Shown: positions 1 to 64,000 of the stretch, in pieces
Layout of the letters: every line of letters starts with the position of its first letter
Position numbering within the stretch: the stretch's first letter is position 1
From: a virus
Strand: one strand, 5' to 3'
Virus record (IMG/VR): IMGVR_UViG_3300037518_000459
DNA: 64,000 nt
Notes under the pieces: model-generated
Told to the model about the DNA's origin: nothing
The model's input: the letters and a program-made list of their open reading frames with translations, nothing else
Databases searched by the model: none
Made by a program: the position numbers and the translations under genes

Positions 1-80
1 TCCATTCGACACAGGGGAAACCCTGTATCCATTCGACACAGGGGAAACCCTGTGTCCATTCGACACAGGGTTTCTACCTA
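1..80. repeat. Three tandem ~27-bp units (tccattcgacacaggggaaaccctgt), each holding a perfect hairpin ACAGGG-GAAA-CCCTGT; the third copy is degenerate.
   Basis: Direct reading of the sequence. The array may continue beyond the left window edge. Confidence 0.8.
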
Positions 81-99
81 GGAAGAAAGGTAACGATGG

Positions 100-190
100 C
101 CGGCCAGGGCGCCGCGGTCCAGGGCGCCACGGTTCAGGGCGCCGCGGTTCAGGGCGCCACGGTTCAGGGCCCGGCCGTCCAGGGCGCCGC
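100..190. repeat. Six tandem copies of a 15-bp unit, cagggcgccgcggtc / cagggcgccacggtt
   Basis: Direct reading. It translates as QGA(A/T)V repeats in the spurious-looking ORF 96..533. Confidence 0.8.
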
Positions 191-212
191 GGTCTGGGCC
201 TGCGCCCGCATG

Positions 213-256
213 GCCGAAACGGGCCGATCGATGGCCGAAACGGGCCGCATGCGGGG
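213..256. repeat. Two copies of atggccgaaacgggccg, and two nearby copies of catgattgacg at ~343 and ~528
   Basis: Direct reading; probably a non-coding repeat-rich region spanning 1-735. Confidence 0.6.
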
Positions 257-734
257 CCCGCCATGGGGCGATCGCCAGGGGGCGAGGGTCAAGGGGCCAG
301 GGCGCCAGGGCCGCGGCCGTCGGGCGCGGGCGCGCGCGCGTAGGGGCCGCATGATTGACGCGGCCCGCGCGCCCGTTGCGCAATCCGCCCGCCGCGTTGT
401 GCATTCTGCAGACAGAAAAGGGCCACGCGCCAAGCGGCGCGGGCCCGATTCCGCCCGGAGCCTATCCCGGAAAGCTAGGCGCGCCGCGCCAGGGCCGCGC
501 GGTAGGCCACGCGGCGCGCGGCGCGGCCCATGATTGACGGATCCGTCCGCCACGTCCACGGCATCGCGCCCCGGACCGCGCGGAGGACCGCGCGCGGCGC
601 CGCATCCGCCCGGAGCCCGTCCGCAACGCGTTCCCCGAAAGCGGCCGCGGCGCGCGCCCGGGCCCGCTCATAGGAACCAATTTCCCGGCGGGTTGGCGCC
701 CGATCGGCGACGATGCGCGCCCGCGCGGCCGCGT

Positions 735-1490
735 TCATCGGACCGCCGCTTGCGCGGCCGCGTCCAACGCATGCGCCCCGATCGCATCGGCGACGTCCGC
801 CAGGACATCCCGCAGGGAAGCGGCCCGGTCCGCCGGATCGTAGGCCAGGGCGAACAATGCGAGCCACGCGCGGCCGCGCGAATCCGAGCCTCCGCGTTCC
901 CATTCCGCCGGGGCTTCCACGTCTTTATCCCGTCGGATTGCTGCGAGGATCGGGGGCGCCGCGTCCGCATCGATCGAAAACCCGCTGTCAATGCGGACGC
1001 GCCCGTAGGCTTCCACGAAAGCGGAAGGGTACCCTAGGATCCGGGCCCGAGCCTCATCGACGATGAATCCCGCGGCGCGGATCCGCGCGCATGCGGCCCG
1101 TTGATCTTCCGCTTCCCGGTCCAGCTGGCTCCGGGCCGCGAGGACCGCGCGCCACGTTTCCAGGAATCCGGGAAGGAACCGCCGCGCGACGTCGCGCGCG
1201 ATCTTCTCGGCGCCGCGCGCGGGATCGCAGGAAATGCGCGGCGGTTCGGGCGCGTTCCAATCCCGCGCGGTTCCACCGATGCGCCCGCCGCGCCCGGGAA
1301 GGGCCGCGGAAACGTGGACGCGCGCGGGCCGCGTCCCGTATCCCTGCGCCAAGGTAACGTAGAAAGCGGCGCCATCGGCGCGCGCGACGCGCGCGTATCG
1401 GTGCGAATCCTCCGCATCCCGCGCGTCGACCGTCCAGGGACCATCCGGAAGGGCGGGCGCGATCGCGCCCGCCAATTCGTACGCGTTCAA
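735..1490 (-). CDS. Hypothetical protein, ~251 aa, TTG start
   Basis: Protein-like C-terminal 250 aa of ORF 735..1757. The TTG start sits immediately 3' of the GGAGCCTAGA start-associated motif, and the upstream gene's stop lies within that motif. Confidence 0.5.
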   Translation of the reverse strand: MNAYELAGAIAPALPDGPWTVDARDAEDSHRYARVARADGAAFYVTLAQGYGTRPARVHVSAALPGRGGRIGGTARDWNAPEPPRISCDPARGAEKIARDVARRFLPGFLETWRAVLAARSQLDREAEDQRAACARIRAAGFIVDEARARILGYPSAFVEAYGRVRIDSGFSIDADAAPPILAAIRRDKDVEAPAEWERGGSDSRGRAWLALFALAYDPADRAASLRDVLADVADAIGAHALDAAAQAAVR

Positions 1491-1491
1491 T

Positions 1492-1848
1492 CTAGGCTCC
1501 CCTCCGCCCGTATCGGGCCAGTTCCTGGGAAACGCGCGCCCGAGCCGCATCGCGGGCCGCGTTGATGGCTCCGGGGCGCCCCGCGTTGACCGCGGCGCAC
1601 AATCCCGCGTTGTCGGCATGTTCCCGCAGGGCCGCAAGGTACGCGGCGCGGCGGACGCGGCGCGCGGCGGGGTGGAATCGGTAGGGGGCGGACAGGGCGC
1701 GATTGACCGCGCGAACCACGGAACGGACGGACGCGCCGCAATGGACGCGGCCCGCAACGCGTTCCCCGAGCCATCCGGCCGCGTCTTCCGCCCCGGGCGC
1801 GTTGATGCTGTCCAGCTGGAACGCGCGCAACGCGCGGCGCGGCGCCAC
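1492..1848 (-). CDS. Hypothetical protein, ~118 aa, GTG start
   Basis: C-terminal part of ORF 1492..2046. Its GTG overlaps the TAG stop of the upstream small ORF (TAGTG). Confidence 0.4.
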   Translation of the reverse strand: MAPRRALRAFQLDSINAPGAEDAAGWLGERVAGRVHCGASVRSVVRAVNRALSAPYRFHPAARRVRRAAYLAALREHADNAGLCAAVNAGRPGAINAARDAARARVSQELARYGRRGA

Positions 1849-2003
1849 TATCGGGCCCGCCACGCGGCGCGGATGCGGTCCAGGATCGACGGACGGACGG
1901 GCTCCGGATTGGTCAGGATCGGGCGCGCGCACACTTCCGCGAGAATCGCGACGATGGCCAGGGCGAACCAGAAGAGGCAGAAAAGCGGGAGAATCGGAAA
2001 CAT
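1848..2003 (-). CDS. Small membrane peptide, 51 aa (MFPILPLFCLFWFALAIVAILAEV...)
   Basis: Not in the ORF track because it is under 60 aa. ATG follows GGAGCCTATACC (SAS plus SD), with one strongly hydrophobic TM segment. Confidence 0.45.
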   Translation of the reverse strand: MFPILPLFCLFWFALAIVAILAEVCARPILTNPEPVRPSILDRIRAAWRAR

Positions 2004-2046
2004 GGTATAGGCTCCAGTTCAGGGGCGGGCGGTTTGAACTCGGCAC

Positions 2047-2145
2047 CTAACGGGCGCGGTTCCGGATCCGATCGCAGTAGGTCAGGAACGGGATTCCGGC
2101 GGTCAGGGTGAGAAGGGCCGTTGCGGTCAGGATTGCGAGGATCAT
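2047..2145 (-). CDS. Small membrane peptide, 32 aa (MILAILTATALLTLTAGIPFLTYCDRIRNRAR)
   Basis: ATG is preceded by GGAGCCTAGAA (SAS), with a single TM helix; it is the C-terminal M of ORF 2047..2475. Confidence 0.45.
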   Translation of the reverse strand: MILAILTATALLTLTAGIPFLTYCDRIRNRAR

Positions 2146-2180
2146 TTCTAGGCTCCGGTCTGTCAGGGACGCAGGACCAT

Positions 2181-2200
2181 ATAGCAGGGCCCGTGCCAAT
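2181..2200 (-). promoter_or_regulatory. sigma54-type -24/-12 promoter-like element (rc GATTGGCACGGGCCCTGCTATATG), leftward
   Basis: Matches TGGCACG-N4-nTGC with GG-to-GC spacing of 12; it lies upstream of the gene at 2047..2145 and its operon. Confidence 0.5.
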
Positions 2201-2270
2201 CCACGAAACGACAACGGGCGCCAAACCGCGGGCCCGGTCCGCCAATTCTGGCGAATCCGGGCCCTTGCGG

Positions 2271-2310
2271 TTTGCAACGCCGTTGCAAAATGCGGACGCA
2301 TTCCGCAACG
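2271..2310. promoter_or_regulatory. Dyad-symmetric upstream elements: TTGCAACGCCGTTGCAA and TTGCAAAATGCGGACGCATTCCGCAA
   Basis: Inverted repeats ~90-120 bp upstream of the 2181-2200 promoter, in an enhancer or operator-like position. Confidence 0.5.
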
Positions 2311-2314
2311 TCGA

Positions 2315-2668
2315 CTAGACCGGGACAGACTCCCCGGTCTGGGAATCGTAGATTGCCAGCTGGCCCGCCCGTCGTCCCGCTTCCAGGGCCGCGGCGCGAT
2401 CCTCGAAACCGCGCGAAACGTCCAGGAAATAGCGCCCGGACGCGGGATCCTTCCATCCGCCGAAGTACGCGCCATCGCGCGAAAGGGCGGGCCAGCGGGT
2501 CCGGATGAACTCGGAGAGTTCCGCTTCCGTGGGCTCCCGGTCGAACTCGGCGCCGCCCGCGTCCGATGCCAGAAACCGCGCGGGCGGGGTTTGGTAGTTC
2601 AGGGCCAGGGTAAAACCGCCATCCGCCCAAAGATCGGACGATGCGGGAATAACAACGTGCGCGCGCAA
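2315..2668 (-). CDS. Hypothetical protein, 117 aa, TTG start
   Basis: Protein-like C-terminus of ORF 2315..2875. The TTG start sits after the CCCCTAGACTGGAGCCTACC SAS, and the upstream ATG-initiated stretch has low GC3. Confidence 0.5.
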   Translation of the reverse strand: MRAHVVIPASSDLWADGGFTLALNYQTPPARFLASDAGGAEFDREPTEAELSEFIRTRWPALSRDGAYFGGWKDPASGRYFLDVSRGFEDRAAALEAGRRAGQLAIYDSQTGESVPV

Positions 2669-2741
2669 GGTAGGCTCCAGTCTAGGGGCGAAGCAAGCAA
2701 GGGCGATTGTAGCACGTTCCGGGCCCGTCAGGGAAAGCAAA

Positions 2742-2903
2742 CTATAGCCTAATCTCCTTTCCATCCGTCGAATCGGTCGGGCCTTTTGCGCGCAACCTAG
2801 CGCGCAATTTGCGAAGATCCCGGGACCATCGGGCCGCAAGGGAAAGGAGCCCGACCAGGACAAGGGCCATTGCAAACGCTAGCAGGATCAAGAATCCTTT
2901 CAT
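2742..2903 (-). CDS. Small membrane protein, 53 aa (MKGFLILLAFAMALVLVGLL...)
   Basis: Internal M of ORF 2742..2996, with a TM helix followed by a basic tail; ATGA overlap with the upstream gene. Confidence 0.5.
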   Translation of the reverse strand: MKGFLILLAFAMALVLVGLLSLAARWSRDLRKLRARLRAKGPTDSTDGKEIRL

Positions 2904-3064
2904 TCCAGGGCCCCGCTTTCCAGCAACGCGGCCGCTTGCCGACCGTACCGCCCGGGAAGGGACCAAACGATCCCGGACCGTATGAGTTCGCGCCACGCGT
3001 CCAGGACGTCCGCCGCGTCCGCTTCCGGATCTTCCACCAATTCGAGCGCTTCGATTGGTCCCAT
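2900..3064 (-). CDS. Hypothetical acidic protein, 54 aa
   Basis: Internal M of ORF 2900..3121 (MGPIEALELVEDPEA...), coupled by ATGA to the downstream gene. Confidence 0.4.
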   Translation of the reverse strand: MGPIEALELVEDPEADAADVLDAWRELIRSGIVWSLPGRYGRQAAALLESGALE

Positions 3065-3081
3065 TGCCAACCTACCCTTTC

Positions 3082-3792
3082 CTAGAAACGGTCCGCCGCG
3101 TTGTCGCGCCACCAAACCCATGTAAGGGCTTGGACGCGCGCGGCGGTCAAGCTAGGGGCCAGTTCCGGGAACGCGGCGCGAAGGGCCGCGGCCGCGTCAA
3201 CGTACGCGCGGGCCGCTTCGCGGTATCGTTTGTCGGTCAGTTTCAGGGCGGGCCCGCCCCCTGCGATCGCCCACGCGTGGCGGTCAATGCAAACCGCATC
3301 CGTTGCGCCCGCGGAAACGATCGACCGATAGAACGCGCGGACTTTCGGGCCCCCTAGCACGTCCAGGGGCGGCGCCCCGTCCAGGATCCGGGCCGCTTTC
3401 GCGCGGTTCCGACCGTATCCCGGTCCGGGAAGGATCGGGGCGCCTTGCTTCCACGCGTCCAGGATCGCGGGCGCCCATGCGGTTTGAACGTCCCAGGATA
3501 CTTGAGGGGAAAGGGCCGCAAGCGCCCCGGCCGTCGATTCGACGGACAGCCCGTAAGGGCGCCCGATCCCTGCGCAGAATCGGCGCGCGTTTTCGTACCA
3601 ATCCAGCCCGTCCCGGGCGCGGGCCGCGTCGTCCAGGGCGCGGCGCGCTACCAGTTCCACGCGCGCCGCGGCGGTTCGCGGTTCCAGGAACGGCGGGCGC
3701 GCCCGCGCGGGCGGTTCCGGATCGGCGGGCGCCGCGGGCCCGTTCGCCCAATCGGCGAGCCACCACTCATCAAGCGGGCGGTCAGGATTCAA
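3082..3792 (-). CDS. Hypothetical protein, 236 aa, TTG start
   Basis: ORF-track protein with ordinary composition. Its start is immediately after the CCCCCTGACCGGAGCCTAGCG SAS. Confidence 0.6.
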   Translation of the reverse strand: MNPDRPLDEWWLADWANGPAAPADPEPPARARPPFLEPRTAAARVELVARRALDDAARARDGLDWYENARRFCAGIGRPYGLSVESTAGALAALSPQVSWDVQTAWAPAILDAWKQGAPILPGPGYGRNRAKAARILDGAPPLDVLGGPKVRAFYRSIVSAGATDAVCIDRHAWAIAGGGPALKLTDKRYREAARAYVDAAAALRAAFPELAPSLTAARVQALTWVWWRDNAADRF

Positions 3793-3833
3793 CGCTAGGC
3801 TCCGGTCAGGGGGCGGGTTTCCGCCCCGGAGCG

Positions 3834-3869
3834 TAGCACGGGCCGTGCCAATCCAATAAATGCCAATCC
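3834..3869 (-). promoter_or_regulatory. sigma54-type -24/-12 promoter-like element (rc GATTGGCATTTATTGGATTGGCACGGCCCGTGCTACGCT), leftward
   Basis: TGGCACG-N4-GTGC with correct spacing, a duplicated GATTGGCA, directly upstream of the SAS of gene 3082..3792. Confidence 0.5.
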
Positions 3870-3899
3870 TGCGGAATCCTGCGGGATTCCTACCAGTTC

Positions 3900-4050
3900 A
3901 AGCAAGCGGCGCGCGTTGCAATTGGCAAACTGCGAATCGCAGAATGCGACCCGTCATTCTGCACGTGTCGGCGCGACACGGTGACCAGTTCCTGGCCGGT
4001 CGTGCATTTTGCACGTTTTGCAGATTTTGACAATCCTGCAAGCCAGCTGC
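3900..4050. promoter_or_regulatory. Cluster of dyad elements: TGCGAATCGCA, CAGAATGCGACCCGTCATTCTG, GTGTCGGCGCGACAC, GTGCATTTTGCAC, TTGCAG-N12-CTGCAA
   Basis: Several perfect inverted repeats 50-200 bp upstream of the 3834 promoter; the GCATTTTGC core recurs at three other sites. Confidence 0.5.
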
Positions 4051-4060
4051 CCGCGAGCGC

Positions 4061-4146
4061 GCGAGCTGCGAAACGCGAGCTGCACTTTTGCGAGCTGCAC
4101 TTTCCGAGCTGCACTTTCCGAGCTGCACTTTAGCAGCTGCACTTTC
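4061..4146. repeat. Six tandem ~14-bp iteron-like repeats (C)GAGCTGCACTTTn(n)
   Basis: Direct reading of the non-coding 383-bp gap 3793-4175. Confidence 0.8.
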
Positions 4147-4149
4147 TGC

Positions 4150-4178
4150 GCACCCCCTCTTTAGGCACCCCCTCTTTA
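4150..4178. repeat. Two copies of GCACCCCCTCTTTA overlapping the stop of gene 4176..5531
   Basis: Direct reading. Confidence 0.7.
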
Positions 4179-5531
4179 CGGCGTCCCCTTGAGGCACAGA
4201 ACGTGGACCACGGCCTCGTTGCCGTACGCCTTGGTCTGCAGCACGAACAGGCGCTCGCCGGCCGCGTCCCACGTCATGCCATTGAAGTAGCGCCGGCGGC
4301 AGACCGGGTCGAAGCCGTCGAGCGGCGACTGCCACAGCCAGTCCGGCATGATGGCTTGGACGGGCTGCACCTCCCACGGCTGGCGGATCCCCATCGCGAC
4401 TTCGCCCAGCTGGTCCGGGTCGTAGAAGTAGAGCATCGGCGTGTACGGCTCCGAGTGCCAGCCGCGGAACGCGTCGCAGCCGATCCCGTCGTCGTAGTGG
4501 TTGGGCCCGAGCCCCTTGGTCCACCCGAAGATCAGCACGCTCAGACCGTTCCGGTCGTAGGGCCACGCCATATTCCACCACCAGTCGCCCTCGGCGTTCT
4601 TGTAGCCCTCGGACCAGCCGAGGGCCCCCGTGCCAGGATAGCCGAGGATCATGCGCGCGCCGAAGTCCGAGCCCGGCGCCGCACTCAGGTCAGGCTTGAA
4701 GACCTGGAGCGTGGGGCCGAAGAGCCCTTCGAACGCGCCGGCGATCCGCTGGCGCGCGCACCCGATGACCGCGTCGGGGTCGTACTTGCCGGCCCACGCC
4801 GGCGGCACGCGCAGCAAGCGCTGGTGCGTCTTGTTCGCGTGGTGCGCGTTCTTCGTGGGGACGTTCACGCCCGCGGGGCCCGCGCGCCACGGCCCGTCCT
4901 TCCGCTGCGTGTCGAGCGACGCGTCGGTCGCAGTGAGCCCCTCGTTATCCCGCGCGACCACGTTGTAGAACTCCCAGTACGCGATCAGGAGGTCCAACCC
5001 CAGGGTCGCCATGCCCCCGAACGTCTTCGCCGGATCGCACAGGGGCGCCGTCAGCTGCGACTCCTGGAACCGCGGGCCAACCGCCTGGGACACGAGGCAC
5101 TTGGTCGGTTGGTTCTTCACCGCACTAAGGGGCAGCCCGGGGTCCGCGGGCACGGTGATCTCGGTGATGCCGCCCAGGGAGCGGATCAGCAGGCGCCCGT
5201 TCGCCTCGTCGTAGTCGAGGTCGCTGTTGTCGAACTGGCGCTGCCCAGTGCCGAAGATCGCGAGCGACGGAAGGCGGAACGTGTGGCGCCACTGGAAGTC
5301 CGAGTACGACAGGCGCCCCGCGCCGGGCGCGTCGGGGATGTTGGCCCAGACGGGGTTCACCGAGAGCACCGCGACCCAATCGCTCCAGATGCCGGCGACG
5401 ACCCAGGCGACGGACCACCAGTGCTCGTCGTACAGGCCGGGGTTCGCGAAGACGTGCTCCAGGTCGCTCCACTTGCCGGCGCCACTCACGGCTTCGGCGA
5501 CCCGGGCTAGGGACAGGGTAGTATTGGACAA
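4176..5531 (-). CDS. Hypothetical protein, 451 aa, Trp/Tyr-rich, possibly an enzyme
   Basis: Long ORF with protein-like composition; no motif recognised. Confidence 0.6.
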   Translation of the reverse strand: MSNTTLSLARVAEAVSGAGKWSDLEHVFANPGLYDEHWWSVAWVVAGIWSDWVAVLSVNPVWANIPDAPGAGRLSYSDFQWRHTFRLPSLAIFGTGQRQFDNSDLDYDEANGRLLIRSLGGITEITVPADPGLPLSAVKNQPTKCLVSQAVGPRFQESQLTAPLCDPAKTFGGMATLGLDLLIAYWEFYNVVARDNEGLTATDASLDTQRKDGPWRAGPAGVNVPTKNAHHANKTHQRLLRVPPAWAGKYDPDAVIGCARQRIAGAFEGLFGPTLQVFKPDLSAAPGSDFGARMILGYPGTGALGWSEGYKNAEGDWWWNMAWPYDRNGLSVLIFGWTKGLGPNHYDDGIGCDAFRGWHSEPYTPMLYFYDPDQLGEVAMGIRQPWEVQPVQAIMPDWLWQSPLDGFDPVCRRRYFNGMTWDAAGERLFVLQTKAYGNEAVVHVLCLKGTP

Positions 5532-11645: not shown

Positions 11646-11699
11646 CTTGGCCCCCTTGATGGTACCAGTGTAAGTCATGCCCGGAGATAATGCAACCCT

Positions 11700-11792
11700 T
11701 GGGCCAAGCAAAAGGGTGGCCATCTCTGGCCACCCCTTGCCGATCCTGACACCCTGGAGTAGCAAACTGCACGGGGGTCGTGCAGAGTGCGA
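11700..11792 (-). terminator. Two GC-rich hairpins, GGGTGGCCA-N4-TGGCCACCC and CTGCACG-N5-CGTGCAG
   Basis: Inverted repeats directly downstream of gene 11793..12071; there is no T-tract. Confidence 0.35.
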
Positions 11793-12073: not shown

Positions 12074-12256
12074 TCAGCTCTCCTGCGCCACGAGGACGCG
12101 GTTGTCAGCCGGCTCCGGAGAACCGGCGTGCGTGATCAGCTGAATCGCGAGCGCCCGCGCGCAGGGGCGGCACAGCCCCCGGTTTCCGAGCTGCACTACT
12201 GCGCGCCTCCGGCACGCGCAGAGCCCGCGATCCTCCTGCTTCAGCGGCTCGACCAC
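12074..12256 (-). CDS. Small Cys-rich, zinc-ribbon-like protein, 60 aa, GTG start
   Basis: C-terminal part of ORF 12074..12415, with GGAG 6 nt upstream, a CAC...CRPC motif and high GC3. Confidence 0.4.
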   Translation of the reverse strand: MVEPLKQEDRGLCACRRRAVVQLGNRGLCRPCARALAIQLITHAGSPEPADNRVLVAQES

Positions 12257-19109: not shown

Positions 19110-19175
19110 CCTGCTACCCGGCCTCCGACTTGACAATCCTACTGCCGAAGCAGGAGGGTTGTCAACTTGGTGCTT
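19110..19175 (-). promoter_or_regulatory. sigma70-like candidate promoter (TTGACA-N18-TAGGAT) inside the inverted repeat TTGACAA-N24-TTGTCAA
   Basis: Direct reading of the 326-bp intergenic region 19035-19361. Confidence 0.3.
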
Positions 19176-19265
19176 CGAGGTGCCTCGGCTCGAAGCTGCC
19201 CACCCCGATCGGGTATACGCTCTACGATGCAAGTAGCCGGTGGGCCCCGCCCCTTCAACCGGTAG

Positions 19266-19290
19266 CTGCACTTCCCGTGCCAATCTACTA
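19266..19290 (-). promoter_or_regulatory. sigma54-type -24/-12 promoter-like element (rc GATTGGCACGGGAAGTGCAGCT), leftward
   Basis: TGGCACG-N4-GTGC, the same architecture as at 2181, 3834 and 31655. Confidence 0.45.
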
Positions 19291-19325: not shown

Positions 19326-19372
19326 GGCAGCTCGCCGTTGCAAATTGCGAACGCTTCGGCATTATGCGAACG
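19326..19372. promoter_or_regulatory. Upstream repeat element CCGTTGCAAATTGCGAACGCTTCGGCATTATGCGAACGG
   Basis: Shares the GCCGTTGCAAAaTGCGgACGC core with the 2276-2300 element; overlaps the 3' end of the primase gene. Confidence 0.45.
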
Positions 19373-21797
19373 GCTTCTGCTCATCGTCGGGTGCGTCCAT
19401 CACAGTTTCCCACTCGTAGGGTCCGCCGTAATGCTCGTCCCAGTGCTCGCGGCACTTCTTCAGAGGCGGAATCACGTAGGCCCACGGGCGTGCGTAGGTC
19501 TGGTCCGTCCCGCCGATGGACAACGTCAGCGGCTCGGGCTGCTGCTTGCGAGTTGGTCCGCCGGGGATCGCTTTCTTCAGCAGCTGTCCGACCGCCGTGG
19601 AGTTGCCGCGCCGCGTGCTGGAGATGCCCCAGCCGCGGAGGTAATTAGCGTAGTCCAGCGCCAGTTCCTCGACGTGCACCAGGGGCCTCCAGCCTCCGTG
19701 CTTCGGCAGAACCGTGCCGTCCTGCAGTTTCGAGTACCACCAGCGTTCGACGGGCTTCATCGTATGGAGCTTCTGTTCCCGGAGGGCATCCGTCTTCGGC
19801 ACGTCGCGCACGTTGAACTTCGAGATGTCCAGGTTAAGCAGCAGGTACAGGAGCGCCTCCCGTCCGCCGTTGTCCATCTGCTTGCGGATCGCCTCGAAGT
19901 ATGTGGTGTCCTGCTTATGGTTGGAGGAGACGCGCAGTACGAAGAAGCGCCGCTCCTCCAGGGCCGCGGGGATCACGTGGTCGTCGTTGGACGCCATCAG
20001 GATGTGCAGGCAGTTGGGCGCCACCTCGGAGTCCACGCCCTTCGGCTCGACCATGATCGTGGGCTCCGTGACGTATGCCTTGAGCGTCGAGATGTGCCGC
20101 GGGTCCCCGGCGAAGAACGCCTCGTCAGGGAAGAGCACCGCGCAATCCCGCAGGTGCGCGTTGAACTGCCCGGTGAAGTGATGCGAGCTGGACACGTGCA
20201 CGAAGTGATGGCCCCACAGCGTGCCGAACTGGAGGATGGCCGTGCCCTTGCCGGTCCCCTGCTCGCCCTGCAGCACCACCGCGACGTGCCCGGGCTCGTA
20301 CGGAATCTGCACCGCGCGAGCCATCCACCCGAGCAGGTATTCGTAGTGCTCTTGGTTGCCACTGCAGATCGTGTTTCGTAGCAGATCGAGGTACAAGTCG
20401 CAGTCGCCCTGGACCGCGGAGCAGTTGAACCCGCGCCACAGGTTGTACGCGTTGCCCTTCACCTTGCGCCCAGGGGCGAAGACGATCGTGTCGTACTGCC
20501 GGCGAAGCGGGTGCTGCATCCACCACTTGCCGAGCGGCATCCGGATGGGCCTCCCCTTGTCGTCGGTGCCCAGGTCCACCATCTGGTTCATGTAGCGCGT
20601 CAGCACGTCTTCCTTGGTCTGCCGGCTGATGCGCCACCGTTCCAGCGACGGGTCCCAGACCTCACTGATGACCCGGCACTTGCCACCCATGTCCCCGATG
20701 ACCGCGTGCTTCTCGTTCATGTCAGCCAGCATCGGGTTCCCGTCCGGGCCCGCGGCCAGCTTGGCCTTGCCGATCTGGCGTCGCGCCTCTTCCTCCGGAC
20801 GGCGCCGCTCCAGTACGCACTCCGAGATGCCGAACCGCTCGTCCGTGATGATGGAGTACATGACGTCGTCCTCGACGCCCGCGCGCACGAGGGCAGTCAG
20901 CACCGCGAACAGGGCAGCGCTGCGATCCACCTCGTTGCTGTTCGGCTTCCGGTACTTCTGCGGCTCCTCCGGATCGTAGCCCCGGACGATGATAGCCTTG
21001 GTCCGGTTGCTGACCTCCGCCGGCAGCTCGTCGAGGGTCGAGGACACCGGCTGGATGTTGCCCGACAGCTTCACGAGGTCGTGGTAGGCCCCCGCGAGGT
21101 TCCCACCGCCGGTCGGACCGCTACCCGCCTGGACCGCGACCGCGGGGGTGAACCGGCTCAGGGGGTACACGCGGGACTCGTCCCACTCCACCACCTGCGC
21201 CAGCTGCTCGGTCCGTCCCTTCGCTCGCTTCTTCTCGTTGGGGATGTTCACGGTCCCGGGGAGGCGCATGAGGCGATCGACGTTGTGGCACTGGTCGGCA
21301 CCGAACACCAGCTCCAGCTGCTGGTTCCAGCGCTTCGCCTCCTCGGCCTTGTCCACGTCCCCGTCGATGGGGAAGGGCTCCGAGAGCCGCCAGAATCCCT
21401 GGTAGCCCCCGCCCGAGAACACGATCACCGTGGGCGCAGGGACGCCCGCCGGGAGCTTCTCGGTCAGGAGCTTGAGCGCACGCCGCTGCTCCAGCTCCAG
21501 GTCCTCGCCGGCACGCGGGTCGATGTCCACGTGCAGCCACGCGAGGGCCCGGATGTCCTGGCGCTCCGCCTTCTTCGTCAGGGGCCCGGTGACCGGGTTG
21601 ACGTGGAAGTACAGGTTGCGCGTCTCGTTCTGTTTGGCCACCCAGGCGAGCAGGTCCTTCGCGTCCGATTCCACGAACGTGCGCGTGGTGATCGCGCGCT
21701 GCTCGGCAGCGATCGCGGTCAGGACCCAGAGACCGTCCGGGTCCCATCGGCGCAGGAAGTCCAGCGCCGCCTGGGGATCAGTACGGGGGCAGGTCAT
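19362..21797 (-). CDS. Primase-helicase, 811 aa (prim-pol/primase-like N-terminal region plus D5-like SF3 helicase C-terminal region)
   Basis: Walker A GEQGTGKGT in the C-terminal NTPase and a P4/D5-like architecture. Confidence 0.8.
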   Translation of the reverse strand: MTCPRTDPQAALDFLRRWDPDGLWVLTAIAAEQRAITTRTFVESDAKDLLAWVAKQNETRNLYFHVNPVTGPLTKKAERQDIRALAWLHVDIDPRAGEDLELEQRRALKLLTEKLPAGVPAPTVIVFSGGGYQGFWRLSEPFPIDGDVDKAEEAKRWNQQLELVFGADQCHNVDRLMRLPGTVNIPNEKKRAKGRTEQLAQVVEWDESRVYPLSRFTPAVAVQAGSGPTGGGNLAGAYHDLVKLSGNIQPVSSTLDELPAEVSNRTKAIIVRGYDPEEPQKYRKPNSNEVDRSAALFAVLTALVRAGVEDDVMYSIITDERFGISECVLERRRPEEEARRQIGKAKLAAGPDGNPMLADMNEKHAVIGDMGGKCRVISEVWDPSLERWRISRQTKEDVLTRYMNQMVDLGTDDKGRPIRMPLGKWWMQHPLRRQYDTIVFAPGRKVKGNAYNLWRGFNCSAVQGDCDLYLDLLRNTICSGNQEHYEYLLGWMARAVQIPYEPGHVAVVLQGEQGTGKGTAILQFGTLWGHHFVHVSSSHHFTGQFNAHLRDCAVLFPDEAFFAGDPRHISTLKAYVTEPTIMVEPKGVDSEVAPNCLHILMASNDDHVIPAALEERRFFVLRVSSNHKQDTTYFEAIRKQMDNGGREALLYLLLNLDISKFNVRDVPKTDALREQKLHTMKPVERWWYSKLQDGTVLPKHGGWRPLVHVEELALDYANYLRGWGISSTRRGNSTAVGQLLKKAIPGGPTRKQQPEPLTLSIGGTDQTYARPWAYVIPPLKKCREHWDEHYGGPYEWETVMDAPDDEQKPFA

Positions 21798-21804
21798 GGG
21801 ATCC

Positions 21805-22134
21805 CTAGATCCCCCAGAAGGCGGTCAGCGTCTCCACGGGCGCGGTACCGCGCTCCATGCGCGAGAGCCAGTAGCGCGACACCCCGATCTTCTTGGCGAC
21901 TTCCCCGGCCGTCAGGCCCTTGCGCCGGCGCAGCATGAAGCACTCCTCGTGCGGTTCGAGGATGCCGATCGCCGGGCCGCCGCTCTTGATCTCGTCGGTC
22001 TCCAGCTGCAGCCACTCGTAGAGCGAGACACCAGCGGCGTCCGCGGCCTCACCCTGGGACAGGTTCTGACGACGGCGCTCGATCAGGCGTCGCTCGCCGG
22101 CGGTGAGGTCGGCGGTACGGATTCGGTCAGGCAT
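21805..22134 (-). CDS. Helix-turn-helix DNA-binding protein, 109 aa
   Basis: Two HTH-like segments (GEAADAAGVSLYEW; AGEVAKKIGVSRYWLSRMERG); SD GAGGAG. Confidence 0.65.
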   Translation of the reverse strand: MPDRIRTADLTAGERRLIERRRQNLSQGEAADAAGVSLYEWLQLETDEIKSGGPAIGILEPHEECFMLRRRKGLTAGEVAKKIGVSRYWLSRMERGTAPVETLTAFWGI

Positions 22135-29323: not shown

Positions 29324-29513
29324 GTGGACCTCCTGGTTCGCGTGTGAATACAACCCTATCACGGTCGCGAGGGGGTTGTCAACTCCACCACCGGTTGCCC
29401 TCTGTACCTACCTACCTCCCCGGGCATCGGCTGAGGGAGCCCGCACGGGATCCCCACCAGCTCGGGCGGGAAGTAATTGCGCAGGGGCAGAAAGTCGATC
29501 TGCTCTTCAACGT

Positions 29514-31654: not shown

Positions 31655-31676
31655 TGGCACGGGTCGTGCTATACTC
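31655..31676 (+). promoter_or_regulatory. sigma54-type -24/-12 promoter-like element TTGGCACGGGTCGTGCTATACT, rightward, preceded by GATTGGCA
   Basis: TGGCACG-N4-GTGC with GG/GC spacing of 12; it lies ~27 nt upstream of the GAAGGAGG-GTG start of the plus-strand cassette. Confidence 0.5.
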
Positions 31677-31702: not shown

Positions 31703-31972
31703 GTGAACAGATTCTGGAAGGTGTACCAGACCAAGCTGACCCAGGCCGTGCGGCGCGACCCGGAGTCCTACGCGCTGACGCGTGACGAGACCCCGGAAGC
31801 GTACGCGGAGAAGGTGGCCCTGTCCTTCTCGGACAGGACGTCGATCGGGAGCCCGCGAGCCGTGCGGGCCATCAACATCCACGGGAGCGCGGCGTTCCGG
31901 GCCACGGCGCGGCACTTCGGGGTTCCGTGCTCCTACGACTCGCTGGGCCCCCTGGCCGCGGAAGGGAGCTGA
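31703..31972 (+). CDS. Hypothetical protein, 89 aa, GTG start; first gene of the plus-strand cassette
   Basis: Strong SD GAAGGAGG 6 nt upstream. Confidence 0.6.
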   Translation: MNRFWKVYQTKLTQAVRRDPESYALTRDETPEAYAEKVALSFSDRTSIGSPRAVRAINIHGSAAFRATARHFGVPCSYDSLGPLAAEGS

Positions 31973-31975
31973 AAC

Positions 31976-32137
31976 ATGGACAAGGAGTGCATTGCCTGCG
32001 CGGATCCCTCGAACCAACTGAAGCACGGGCTGTGCCCCCGATGCCGAGCCATCCAGCGTACCGCCGCGGACCGCCGCCGGCGCCGTGACAGTCGCCGTAC
32101 CGGACACCGGTTCAAGCGCCGGGAGGGGATCCGATGA
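31976..32137 (+). CDS. Small zinc-ribbon basic protein, 53 aa (CIAC...CPRC)
   Basis: Not in the track because it is under 60 aa; SD GGGAG, tightly packed between the flanking genes. Confidence 0.45.
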   Translation: MDKECIACADPSNQLKHGLCPRCRAIQRTAADRRRRRDSRRTGHRFKRREGIR

Positions 32138-32730
32138 CACGGGGGCGAATGGATTCGACGGACCCGCAGCGGGTGGTGCCGCGTAGGGATCCCGGACGCC
32201 GGTTCGATTCCGGCCGCCTCCACCAGCCTTCGCACGACCCCGGCGCCGGCTTCCGGCAAACCTTCTGCGGTCCCGCGGCGTTGTCCGCTCTGACCGGCAT
32301 ACCCGCGGAGACCGTGGCGCGACGCATCGAGCACCTCACCGGCCCGGCTGAACACTTGGCCGGCATGCACCACTGGGAGATGACCGCGGCCCTCAAGCAC
32401 TTTGGATTGTCGCACAAGAGCATCGCCTACGGTCGCTTGGAGGATCGCCCAAAGCGGCGGCGCGGCTGGTGGGCCCAGCTAGTCACGCGGGATTGCCTGA
32501 AGGGACAGTCCGAGGTGGCTTGGGTCGGGCGTCCGACGTTGGCTCGCTGGGCCCTTGAACGCGACGCCGAGACCTACAACAGCCCCTGCGTCCTGGTCAT
32601 CAGCAATCACTTCGTGGTCGTCCAGGGTGGCGACATCGCGGACAGCGTCCACGGGCTGATGCCCTTGGACGAAAGTCCCTACCGCCGTCGGCGCGTCCAT
32701 CGCGCCACCGTCATCGGGCGCTCGGATTGA
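32134..32730 (+). CDS. Peptidase C39-like (papain-fold) domain protein, 198 aa
   Basis: The QTFCGPAALSAL and SNHFVVV (Cys...His) arrangement is typical of C39-like domains; ATGA overlap; SD GGGAGGGG. Confidence 0.5.
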   Translation: MTRGRMDSTDPQRVVPRRDPGRRFDSGRLHQPSHDPGAGFRQTFCGPAALSALTGIPAETVARRIEHLTGPAEHLAGMHHWEMTAALKHFGLSHKSIAYGRLEDRPKRRRGWWAQLVTRDCLKGQSEVAWVGRPTLARWALERDAETYNSPCVLVISNHFVVVQGGDIADSVHGLMPLDESPYRRRRVHRATVIGRSD

Positions 32731-59105: not shown

Positions 59106-60596
59106 CTATCTTCCTTGGAAGGGCTTCACGCCCATGCGTGACGGGCGCGTGAAAAGCCGGTAACGGACCTCGTCCCCGACGTGGTCCTCGCTCTCTGTGT
59201 CAACGTCGTCGATCTTGCGACTGTCCCGAGACAGGCTGGGCACCGTCCGGAAGAACTGCTCGCAACAGTCGAACACGAAGAAGCCCGGCTCCTCGCGTGA
59301 GCCCTGCTTGGCCACCCGTAGCATATCACGGATCCGCTGCCAACCCAACTCCCGGGTGCCGGGGCCCTTGCTGGCCCTGACCCAGTAGACCCCGAACTTC
59401 GCCATGATCTGCGCCACGGACTCGTCCTGGTCCGTCGCCCAAATCTGGGAATCAGCGGGTCCCGGGCGGATCTTGCGCTCCCCGAAGATGCGCTTCTCAC
59501 GCTCCCGGATCCCCTCGGCCACCTGGGACGCCGTCATGCGGCAGCCCTCGTCCACGTTCCCGGTCCACCCGTACCACTCCGCGATGCGGAAGACGTCCCC
59601 CCGCCGCGTCGGCCCGAAGCCCGGAACGTCGCACCCATCGGACTGCGCGTACCAGCCGACGGAGAAGGGCCGCGACGACCCCCAGTCGAACGCGCGGTCG
59701 ATGATCCACGTGTCCGGGATCGGGAAGGGCGTGATGAAGTGCACGCCCTTGTCCCAGATGTCGTCGAACATCCCGCCGGCGATGATGTCCCAGTCGCCGT
59801 GCAGCCACGCGCGCTCCATGCTCTCGCTGGTCGCGGACTGCCGCAGGCGGGACTTGTACCCGGGGTCAGCGTGCAGGAGGACCCTGTTCTCCTCCAGGTA
59901 GCCGTGGATGGCGACCCGCTCGTTGGTGCCCCCATCTTCGTCCGTCTCGCGGATGACGCGCCCGACGACCTTGCCCCGTTCGATCGGGAGGTGGAACCGC
60001 GAGCGCACCCAGTTGTGTCCGCGGCCGAACGGGTTCGTCGTCGATCGATACTTGCGTGGCATGCCGGGCGTGGTAGACCGGCACACGGACATCATCATCA
60101 GGTAGCACTTGTCGTCGGGCCACGTCGTCAGCTCTTCCCACGCGATCCACGGATAGGCATGGCCGTGGTAGTCCCAGTAGCCGTCGACGTTCTTGATGTT
60201 CCGGAAGTAGAGCTTCTCGCCGTCCGGGAACGTCCACTCGGGGTTCGGGGAGCTGGTGAAGCGCGCCTTCGGGAAGAGGAGCGGGAACCACTTCAACGAC
60301 TTCTGGATGACGTCTTCCAGCTCGGGGTACGTCCGCCGGAAGAGGATGCCCTTCCACTCCGCGCCCCAGCCCTGCCCCACGTGCTGCGCGAAGTCCATCA
60401 GCAGCGCGTCGGTTTTGCCGGGCCCGCGCGTACCCTCGTACAGCACCTCGAAAACCGGGCACTCCAGGAATGCTTCCTGGCTGCCCGGCTGAGGCGCCCA
60501 CGTCACGCGGCGGCGGTCCTCGTTCGCTTCGATCAGGAACGGGGAGAGCTGGTTTTCCTCGTCGACTTCCCAGACGAGGGTGGGGGCGAGGCTCAC
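59106..60596 (-). CDS. Terminase large subunit, 496 aa
   Basis: N-terminal ATPase (GTRGPGKT) and C-terminal nuclease-like region; upstream of the portal. Confidence 0.8.
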   Translation of the reverse strand: MSLAPTLVWEVDEENQLSPFLIEANEDRRRVTWAPQPGSQEAFLECPVFEVLYEGTRGPGKTDALLMDFAQHVGQGWGAEWKGILFRRTYPELEDVIQKSLKWFPLLFPKARFTSSPNPEWTFPDGEKLYFRNIKNVDGYWDYHGHAYPWIAWEELTTWPDDKCYLMMMSVCRSTTPGMPRKYRSTTNPFGRGHNWVRSRFHLPIERGKVVGRVIRETDEDGGTNERVAIHGYLEENRVLLHADPGYKSRLRQSATSESMERAWLHGDWDIIAGGMFDDIWDKGVHFITPFPIPDTWIIDRAFDWGSSRPFSVGWYAQSDGCDVPGFGPTRRGDVFRIAEWYGWTGNVDEGCRMTASQVAEGIREREKRIFGERKIRPGPADSQIWATDQDESVAQIMAKFGVYWVRASKGPGTRELGWQRIRDMLRVAKQGSREEPGFFVFDCCEQFFRTVPSLSRDSRKIDDVDTESEDHVGDEVRYRLFTRPSRMGVKPFQGR

Positions 60597-63225: not shown

Positions 63226-63921
63226 TCAAGCGTCAGGGGCTTGCTCACCGGCATCCTCGCCGGCCACTGCGCCATCGTCTCCTTGATCAGCTGCTCCACT
63301 GCTCTCATCGATCACCTCGTGCTCTGCGTCGACCGGGGCCCCGAACTTCTCTTCCCAGCTCTCGGAGCTAGAGCCCGGCGCGTTCACCACCAGCACCCCG
63401 CCAGACGCGTTGTTCGCGATGATGTCGCCCTTCTCGCGGAACTCCGGCATGCGGGACTTCGCGTAGGCGAGGAGCATCGCGTCGGACATCTTGCGCACGC
63501 GCTTCGTCAGGACCATCTCCTTCGAGAGTCCGCCGCCGGACTTGAGCGTCTTGGCCTGATGGACCATCATGGCCTCCCACGTCTCCTCAACCTGCCCGTT
63601 CTCCGCGCGGTCCAGGATCAGCGCGCGGACCATGTCGTTGTGCAGCTCCAGCGCCGCCTCCTCGGCCCGCGCGAACTGCTTGTCGACCGACCGCAAGCGG
63701 CGCATCGTCTCGTACGAGACCCCCGCCACCAGCGCCGCCTCCCCGCGGCGTCCACACCGAATCAGGTACCGCAGGTACAGGACCTGCCGTTCCGGCGTGA
63801 ACCGCACGTACGGCTTGCGCTCCGAGTCGACGCCCAGGAAGTCGACCAGGGCCTCCTCGCCCAGGGACTCGACCAGGGCGCGCGGGTTCGGTTGCTGCGG
63901 GGCGGGGAGGTTGTCACTCAT
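63226..63921 (-). CDS. HTH-containing terminase small subunit-like protein, 231 aa
   Basis: N-terminal HTH (GEAALVAGVSYETMRRLR), acidic C-terminus, upstream of the packaging genes but separated from TerL by 5 genes. Confidence 0.45.
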   Translation of the reverse strand: MSDNLPAPQQPNPRALVESLGEEALVDFLGVDSERKPYVRFTPERQVLYLRYLIRCGRRGEAALVAGVSYETMRRLRSVDKQFARAEEAALELHNDMVRALILDRAENGQVEETWEAMMVHQAKTLKSGGGLSKEMVLTKRVRKMSDAMLLAYAKSRMPEFREKGDIIANNASGGVLVVNAPGSSSESWEEKFGAPVDAEHEVIDESSGAADQGDDGAVAGEDAGEQAPDA

Positions 63922-64000
63922 ACGCCCCACCCGATGTGCACGAGGAGCCACGCGAGGAAGCCGGTGATTGCCACGCGGCGCAGGCGCCACGCTTTGTTCT

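Follow-up and report, generated by a model that had tools for sequence, protein, structure and literature searches.

In this work we describe a non-coding gap of 383 bp (positions 3793–4175) in a 64,000-bp stretch, hereafter the window, of a siphovirus-type phage genome (IMG/VR virus record IMGVR_UViG_3300037518_000459; 66.8% GC; nearly all genes are on the minus strand). The gap lies between the stop codon (TAA) of an open reading frame (ORF) of 451 amino acids (a.a.) and the start codon (TTG) of a gene of the DUF7178 family. As far as can be read from its sequence, the gap is a composite of three parts: a conserved tandem array of two types of unit (A and B), a conserved sigma-54-type promoter together with a stem at the ribosome-binding site, and a cluster of dyads that is not conserved. 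The array is real, is more than a chance repeat, and is not shown to be an origin of replication. Our tentative preference is for a reading in which a sequence-specific DNA-binding protein occupies the multiple sites of the array and, from this enhancer or insulator, controls the sigma-54-type promoter of the DUF7178 module; this is quite possible, and short of probable. The features of the gap and its two flanking genes are as follows.

3082–3792, minus strand: DUF7178 gene (TTG start; Pfam E = 3.7e-34), the first in the module that the gap would serve
3799–3832, minus strand: two-tier hairpin (RNA fold −28.8 kcal/mol, z = −4.35)
3835–3850, minus strand: P1, sigma-54-type −24/−12 promoter TGGCACGGCCCGTGCT, matching 11 of 12 consensus positions
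3847–3884, minus strand: GGATTGGCA / GGATTCCGCA motifs with ~10-bp phasing, upstream of and into the −24 element
3873–4015: cluster of five dyads (4001–4015, 3964–3980, 3939–3962, 3930–3942 and 3873–3890)
4005–4037, minus strand: A-tract segment AGGATTGTCAAAATCTGCAAAACGTGCAAAATGCAC (9–10-bp phasing, ~37% GC, period 9 in Tandem Repeats Finder, TRF)
4062–4075, minus strand: degenerate sixth A unit, CGAGCTGCGAAACG (TTTCGCAGCTCG on the minus strand), read from the sequence
4076–4146, minus strand: five A units, AAAGTGCAGCTCG on the minus strand (14–15-bp period, TRF)
4150–4178, minus strand: two B units, TAAAGAGGGGGTGC on the minus strand (exact copies, 15-bp period)
4176–5531, minus strand: orphan ORF of 451 a.a. 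(TAA stop at 4176–4178)

The array consists of two B units and then five or six A units, arranged head-to-tail 212–330 bp upstream of the promoter. The B unit GCACCCCCTCTTTA is found in two exact copies (4150–4163 and 4165–4178), just as a preliminary description of this DNA had it, and the second copy overlaps the TAA stop (4176–4178) of the 451-a.a. ORF. Each A unit has the core AAAGTGCAGC followed by a variable linker of 4–5 bp; the 10–13-bp cores of the array are AAAGTGCAGC and AGGGGGTGC. The start-to-start spacing of the units is 14 or 15 bp (17 bp at the B–A junction). TRF reports a 14-bp array at 4076–4146 (5.0 copies, 89% matches, score 105), in which GAGCTGCACTTT is exact at 4077, 4092, 4106 and 4120 and has one mismatch at 4134. 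With up to two mismatches allowed, 14 matches to the A unit are found across the window where 3.07 would be expected; none of 100 shuffles yields as many. Six tandem units had been described: five are good units, far above chance, but the sixth (4062–4075) is degenerate. A GC-rich stretch of 20 bp adjoins the array on the promoter side. Lone copies of an A-like core (AGTGCAGCT) are found in two other intergenic control regions, at 12186–12199 and 19263–19274, the latter overlapping the −12 element of a sigma-54-like site (19267–19282); a dispersed regulon accounts for these scattered single copies better than one origin would. RNA folding of the array is no better than that of shuffles (z = −0.31), and a role at the RNA level was rejected on this ground. 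We also rejected the array as a series of tandem sigma-54 promoters, because GG and GC are wrongly spaced within and between the units as read from the sequence.

The comparison with relatives is the strongest test of these units. Relatives were collected by a protein search with DUF7178, and the contigs carrying its homologues (52–68% identity) were compared. In three of these phages (L054, L058 and L059) A and B units are found right after the stop codon of the upstream gene, before the DUF7178 gene:

Window: DUF7178 as reference; two B units; five A units plus a degenerate sixth
L054: DUF7178 62% identical; four B units; five A units plus a degenerate sixth
L058: DUF7178 68% identical; one B unit plus inverted degenerate B-like copies; four A units
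L059: DUF7178 59% identical; one B unit; four A units (at most one mismatch) plus a weaker fifth by eye, irregularly spaced

A degenerate terminal A unit is seen in L054 and L058 as well as in the window. In a blastn comparison of the window with L054, the array is 88.8% identical over 125 bp, as against 68–72% for the shared coding regions, and it is the best-conserved DNA between the two. The gene upstream differs among the phages: L058 has a gp451 homologue (with the motif FNGMTWD), and L054 and L059 have unrelated genes at this place. The array accompanies the DUF7178 module while the upstream gene changes, and it therefore belongs with this module. Since the 10–13-bp cores are conserved while the linkers and the copy number vary, we read the array as protein-binding sites. 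The preliminary description took absence or variability of the repeats in close relatives as a sign that they lack a function. The tandem A and B units clearly pass this test, and the dyads, which the closest relatives do not conserve, fail it.

More distant DUF7178 phages have an analogous array-plus-promoter layout built from different units. For example, L055 has about four copies (counted by eye) of a different 11-bp unit, GAGTTCCGCTT, located ~360–420 bp upstream of the promoter. In another example, L062 (8074–8790), roughly ten copies of the dyad CCCATGGCATGGG, itself containing TGGCAT, were counted by eye (TRF: 26-bp period, six copies); these dyads lie at −50 to −620 of a TGGCACGGTATCTGCT site, with the spread reaching 75 bp beyond it on the downstream side. 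Sequence scans yielded no further arrays of the same kind: exact repeat-pair scans of IMG/VR, JGI metagenomes and GTDB genomes gave nothing, or low-GC chance matches (L014–L016), a B-to-A pattern scan of IMG/VR gave nothing, and BLAST of the gap against GenBank phages and PLSDB plasmids gave no match. The phages PaMx11 and YuA are without an analogous array and without an intergenic TGGCACGG-type site, and the repeated promoter motif of YuA differs. Contigs from six samples encode an identical 451-a.a. protein and are 99.98–100% identical to the window; they have zero differences in the gap and hence provide no test of conservation. Relatives reached via the AAA ATPase and the first DUF7178 loci collected (L001–L042) were discarded as comparators, as they share only that one gene, and repeat arrays near DUF7178 in L012 and L013 were not used as evidence, these phages being otherwise unrelated.

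The promoter P1 has GG and GC 10 bp apart in its match to the consensus TGGCAC-N5-TTGCW, which is the sigma-54 type of geometry. The motif TGGCACGG-N3-GTGCT occurs exactly at 2183–2198 (minus strand), 3835–3850 (minus strand) and 31655–31670 (plus strand), and with one mismatch at 19267–19282 (minus strand); a consensus-score scan adds TGGCCCAAGGGTTGCA at 11691–11706 (minus strand). Five out of the six consensus-score matches (2183, 3835, 11691, 19267 and 31655) are intergenic and oriented with the genes, and just one falls inside a gene. Non-coding DNA makes up ~6% of the genome, so five of six matches there would be expected by chance with a probability of ~4e-6 (binomial estimate). A weaker sixth promoter-like site, GGGCCC-N5-GTGCTA, was noticed by sequence inspection at ~2712–2727. 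GG-N10-GC with TGGCA[CT]/[GC]TGCTA is kept in all five phages compared (the −24/−12 sequences are TGGCACGGCCCGTGCT in the window, CGGCCCGATTCCTGCT in L054, TGGTCCGGACCGTGCT in L055, TGGCATGGAACGTGCT in L058 and TGGCATGCTTTCTGCT in L059). The suggestion that a sigma-54-like promoter drives the left module is thus borne out, with the motif at five or six gene-oriented intergenic sites and GG-N10-GC upstream of DUF7178 in four other phages. Use of sigma-54 at this motif is likely from its geometry. Sigma-54-dependent promoters were experimentally shown in YuA (PMC10914365) and are annotated in its genome (NC_010116); they share with P1 the −24/−12 geometry GG-N10-GC and the sequence TGGCAC...TGCT. 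Those of YuA, however, serve structural genes, whereas here the promoters precede non-structural modules, and the YuA promoter fragments are without a similar array.

Between P1 and the DUF7178 start codon, the hairpin has an outer stem (CUCCGG/CCGGAG) that pairs the Shine-Dalgarno sequence GGAG (3800–3803) and an inner stem (GGGGCGG/CCGCCCC). The outer stem is seen in four phages; because it is nearly invariant, support from covariation is minimal. From the usual sigma-54 geometry alone, the predicted +1 is the first G of GGGGCGG, and the CUCC(G) arm that pairs with GGAG would therefore fall upstream of +1. The same arrangement of CUCC arm and ribosome-binding site is found in L054, L058 and L055, and at promoter P4 of the window. 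In RNAs reading through from upstream, the CUCC arm would mask the ribosome-binding site and translation would be poor; RNAs initiated at the promoter would be without the CUCC arm, leaving the ribosome-binding site free to be translated. Translation of the IS10 transposase is subject to such fold-back inhibition: there, too, sequence upstream of the own start pairs with the ribosome-binding site, and only properly initiated transcripts are translated. Unlike IS10, the arrangement here is read from geometry, with a nearly invariant stem and minimal covariation. In the left module, the ribosome-site context GGAGCCTA occurs in five copies on the minus strand.

The DNA between array and promoter behaves differently from its two borders: in the alignment of the window with L054, ~210 bp from the array to the promoter are essentially unalignable, and conservation resumes at the −12 element, the hairpin and the ribosome-binding site. 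At least five perfect dyads had been claimed for the gap, and there are in fact eight (arms ≥6 bp, loops ≤10 bp), compared with a shuffle mean of 1.47 and with none of 500 shuffles reaching eight; of these, one falls within the promoter motif and another arises as an artefact from the repeat array. The cluster of five is likewise above chance (shuffle mean 0.86; 0 out of 300 shuffles reach five). Dyads are enriched in L055 too (8 versus 1.34), whose own dyad cluster includes a similar GTGCAA...TTGCAC dyad, but not in L054, L058 or L059. The A-tract segment, which is not conserved in L054, holds a weak sigma-70-like site (TTGTCA-16-CAAAAT, from a promoter scan), and a k-mer comparison found AGGATTGTCAA (4027–4037, with no −35 element) common to this segment and a sigma-70-like promoter near 19170. 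The latter belongs to a recurring class, TTGACAA-N16-TAGG(A/G)TTGT, seen at ~19150–19185 (minus strand), at ~29370–29400 (minus strand) and at ~7290–7325 of L045, a contig that joins the two ends of the window (see below); at 19.17 kb an inverted repeat of 7 bp (TTGACAA...TTGTCAA) is made up of the −35 element and the bases that follow the −10 element. Closer to P1, AATCCTGCGG is present twice in the motif stretch at 3847–3884, and GATTGGCA has five copies in the genome, every one in an intergenic control region. The A-tracts at 4005–4033 are phased, and in the relatives phased TTGGCA- or TGGC-like repeats, or T-tract repeats, are found near the promoter at the equivalent position. There is no match by eye to the IHF consensus between array and promoter, and no enrichment of clustered CcrM (GANTC) sites.

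No coding function was found for the gap. When genes were called independently on the six contigs of this phage, none fell within 3793–4175. The sole sizeable ORF wholly inside it (62 a.a., 3954–4142, minus strand) has no signal in third-position GC (GC3; 0.63/0.53/0.61); this ORF, which starts 8 nt after an SD-like B unit, was rejected as a gene for having no coding composition and being called by no pipeline. Rfam covariance models gave no match at E ≤ 1, and a scan for terminators (a GC-rich hairpin followed by a U run) gave no such site in 3793–4175. The gap had been called the largest non-coding one in the window; it is the largest internal one, but a hub of ~1.1 kb that straddles position 1, seen in L045, is bigger.

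Of the three candidates named in the preliminary description (phage origin, centromere-like site and multi-operator control region), a control region is the best supported; an origin is weaker, and a centromere is without par-type genes in ~60 ORFs. An enhancer-like platform is favoured by the conservation of the cores, the constant linkage to the promoter, the analogous layouts in distant phages and the scattered A-like copies taken together. The DUF7178 module would be transcribed from the −24/−12 promoter at 3835–3850; a protein encoded by the phage or its host would oligomerise along the A/B array and act on the promoter through DNA looping, like an enhancer, with the phased A-tracts and TTGGCA repeats presumably occupying the looped DNA in between. 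With its beginning at the preceding operon's stop codon, the array could double as a barrier to read-through from that operon. The dyads between array and promoter may be lineage-specific operators or structural DNA. Known sigma-54 promoters with upstream activator sequences are similar in having, besides the −24/−12 geometry, a repeated element some hundreds of bp upstream and phased A-tracts in the DNA between; they differ in that their activator dimers bind dyads, whereas the array here has direct repeats of 14–15 bp, and no activator gene was found. Arrays bound by ribbon-helix-helix (RHH) proteins (ParR/parC, omega heptads, MetJ boxes) also resemble this one, with abutting units, variable copy number and a position upstream of a promoter, but their units are 7–11 bp instead of 14–15 bp, and no RHH or partition protein was recognised here.

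Several observations weigh against the control of P1 by an array-bound protein. When small ORFs were scanned with Pfam and PHROG, the only candidates were an Xre-type helix-turn-helix (HTH) protein (21805–22134) and a zinc-ribbon ORF (31976–32137); the sole recognisable HTH protein is encoded 18 kb from the array. The GAFTGA signature of sigma-54 activators is in no phage ORF. Sigma-54 activators bind as dimers to dyads, not to 14-bp head-to-tail repeats. Where an enhancer would have dyads ~80–200 bp upstream, the conserved units here are direct repeats at −212 to −330, and the closest relatives do not share the dyads found at −25 to −165. Other sigma-54-like promoters (P2, P4 and P5) have no array of their own, the −24 element of L054 is weak (CGGCCC), and the −12 part resembles a TGn-extended −10 element (TGCTATACT at P4), so that sigma-54 use is no more than likely. 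The high conservation could also be due to a protein of replication or packaging, or to a module boundary having recently recombined. We consider a stronger version of the control reading unlikely: that the A/B array is a new kind of enhancer, whose six to eight head-to-tail sites assemble a phage or host activator lacking GAFTGA; this activator would turn on a six-promoter sigma-54 regulon of non-structural genes, and a promoter-proximal anti-Shine-Dalgarno segment would limit translation to properly initiated transcripts.

The neighbourhood of the gap bears on the other explanations. The minus-strand module from 3792 down to ~475 comprises DUF7178, DUF7417 and several orphan genes, and the DUF7178 product has a model with an HhH-GPD DNA-glycosylase-like fold. 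This left module (1–3792) has a third-position GC of ~0.6–0.78, compared with 0.82–0.96 elsewhere, and a GC skew near zero; its homologues are found in differing genomic contexts (L055, L060 and L062). The structural genes (terminase, portal and capsid to tape measure) span 33–60 kb and the replication module 19–31 kb (SNF2 helicase, Dda helicase, family A polymerase and a RepB_primase/DUF5906 primase-helicase). The nearest annotated phages by PolA are PaMx11, Ab18, Pam3 and CN1 (42–45% identity; PaMx11 and Ab18 ~45%), and PaMx11 and YuA are both members of the Mesyanzhinovviridae. L045 bridges window positions 64000 and 1 via 2,140 extra bases, and the map is therefore circular, with 66,140 bp. 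The second, larger non-coding hub of ~1.1 kb is at this junction (window 1–474 plus L045 6183–6890, the latter within the 2,140 bp absent from the window). It contains six 15-bp units (104–194), 2.7 copies of a 27-bp hairpin unit (1–70), a T-tract repeat and about ten TCTTAACC/GGTTAAGA units in both orientations; its GC drops to the genome minimum, 35% over 80 bp, and a TTGACT-N17-GATATA promoter-like site comes after it. This hub is a better candidate than the gap for an origin, a packaging site (pac) or early control. A 254-a.a. ORF (63226–63990, minus strand) matches PHROG 'terminase small subunit' (phrog_4044, E = 2e-25) and is 2.6 kb upstream of the large terminase gene; in PaMx11 and YuA, a second gene is annotated as terminase small subunit, away from terL.

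In place of a control region, the array might be a replication origin, with the A/B units as iterons bound by an initiator (e.g. the 811-a.a. primase-helicase, 19362–21797, or the neighbouring Xre-type HTH protein) and the A-tract as the unwinding element. The array has contiguous direct repeats in the same orientation, with a conserved core, a variable linker and strong conservation in related phages, and single related copies occur elsewhere; all this resembles the iteron origins (lambda ori, P1/F/R6K and P4 ori/crr). A short, AT-richer A-tract segment is 25 bp from the array, and the cumulative GC skew ceases falling at ~4 kb. In addition, the phage encodes a RepB_primase/DUF5906 prim-pol helicase, and in satellite phage P4 a protein of this type binds repeated octamers at ori and crr. 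However, the period of 14–15 bp is short compared with known iterons (17–22 bp, typically ~20), the AT-rich element (a 32-bp A-tract patch) is not conserved, and in L054 and L058 the array is followed by GC-rich DNA. The 15 stretches of lowest GC in the genome include no 80-bp piece of the gap, and the flat GC skew over 1–4000 matches the odd composition of the whole left module. The array is tied to a sigma-54-type promoter and the DUF7178 module (whose product has a predicted glycosylase fold) instead of to replication genes; there is no adjacent initiator gene, the neighbours being the 451-a.a. orphan (dispensable in L054) and DUF7178. DUF7178 itself was rejected as a repeat-binding initiator because of the DNA-glycosylase fold in its model. 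With the position-1 hub (35% GC) and a 328-bp gap just downstream of the primase gene both being better candidates, we consider an origin in this gap doubtful. A pac site, at which eight contiguous 14–15-bp units are wrapped by a ring-shaped small terminase to start headful packaging, seems to us quite improbable. The ~117 bp of evenly spaced sites in one orientation would be compatible with wrapping by an 8–10-mer ring, conservation of the array would suit a conserved terminase, the DUF7178 module is 2–3.5 kb upstream of the large terminase gene in the more distant L060, L061 and L062, and YuA-type relatives are reportedly circularly permuted. In the genome studied here, by contrast, the array is ~9 kb from the terminase genes, the small-subunit-like gene (63226–63990) and the large terminase gene (59106–60596) are nearer the other repeat hub, and the contigs of the six samples end in other repeats, not in the array.

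Recombination offers an explanation without any binding function: the array would be kept as a crossover point, recent or recurrent, at which phages exchange the DUF7178 module. The upstream neighbour switches exactly at the array, the left module is compositionally distinct (weak GC3 and zero GC skew), and the module is found in varied genomic contexts among phages. Yet in the four phages the cores hardly vary, even though the units differ in copy number and linkers and the flanks on both sides have diverged, which indicates selection on each unit and not one recent transfer, and L059 retains the units even though they are dispersed and non-tandem. A mere recombination boundary is thus quite improbable in our judgement. 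Contiguous short direct repeats are also typical of ParR- or omega-type centromeres, and the array could on this ground be the partition site of a plasmid prophage. But among ~60 ORFs scanned with Pfam and PHROG (not every ORF) there is no ParA/ParB/ParR-like protein, integrase or plasmid replication gene, and the DNA has no similarity to plasmids. Moreover, the nearest annotated PolA relatives are Mesyanzhinovviridae, of which YuA is listed as virulent (PMC10914365). We regard a centromere as extremely improbable.

An 85-nt tmRNA-like element (32141–32225, plus strand) with the tRNA-like domain only was observed inside a plus-strand island (31703–32730). It has the 5' end GGGGCGAATGGATTCGACGG, a T-arm and the 3' end GCCTCCACCA, and matches Rfam RF00023 with 69.9 bits, the mRNA-like part of the model being skipped; ARAGORN stretches it to 31883–32225 with an implausible tag peptide. 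The element is preceded by an 89-a.a. ORF and a 53-a.a. zinc-ribbon ORF (CxxC...CxxC), and all of them are downstream of the sigma-54-like site at 31655–31670.

The use of sigma-54 by phages is rare and poorly understood, and YuA is the one documented case we found. In the phage described here, a set of non-structural modules bears sigma-54-type promoters, one of which is coupled to an array more conserved than the surrounding genes. The comparison with relatives separates the conserved parts of this hub (array, promoter and ribosome-site stem) from the lineage-specific dyads. If the array is a platform for an activator, it would be a defined cis element with which to fish out the factor that drives sigma-54 transcription in a phage without an obvious activator gene; if it is an origin or a pac site instead, it would be the first mapped cis-acting site of this uncultured clade.

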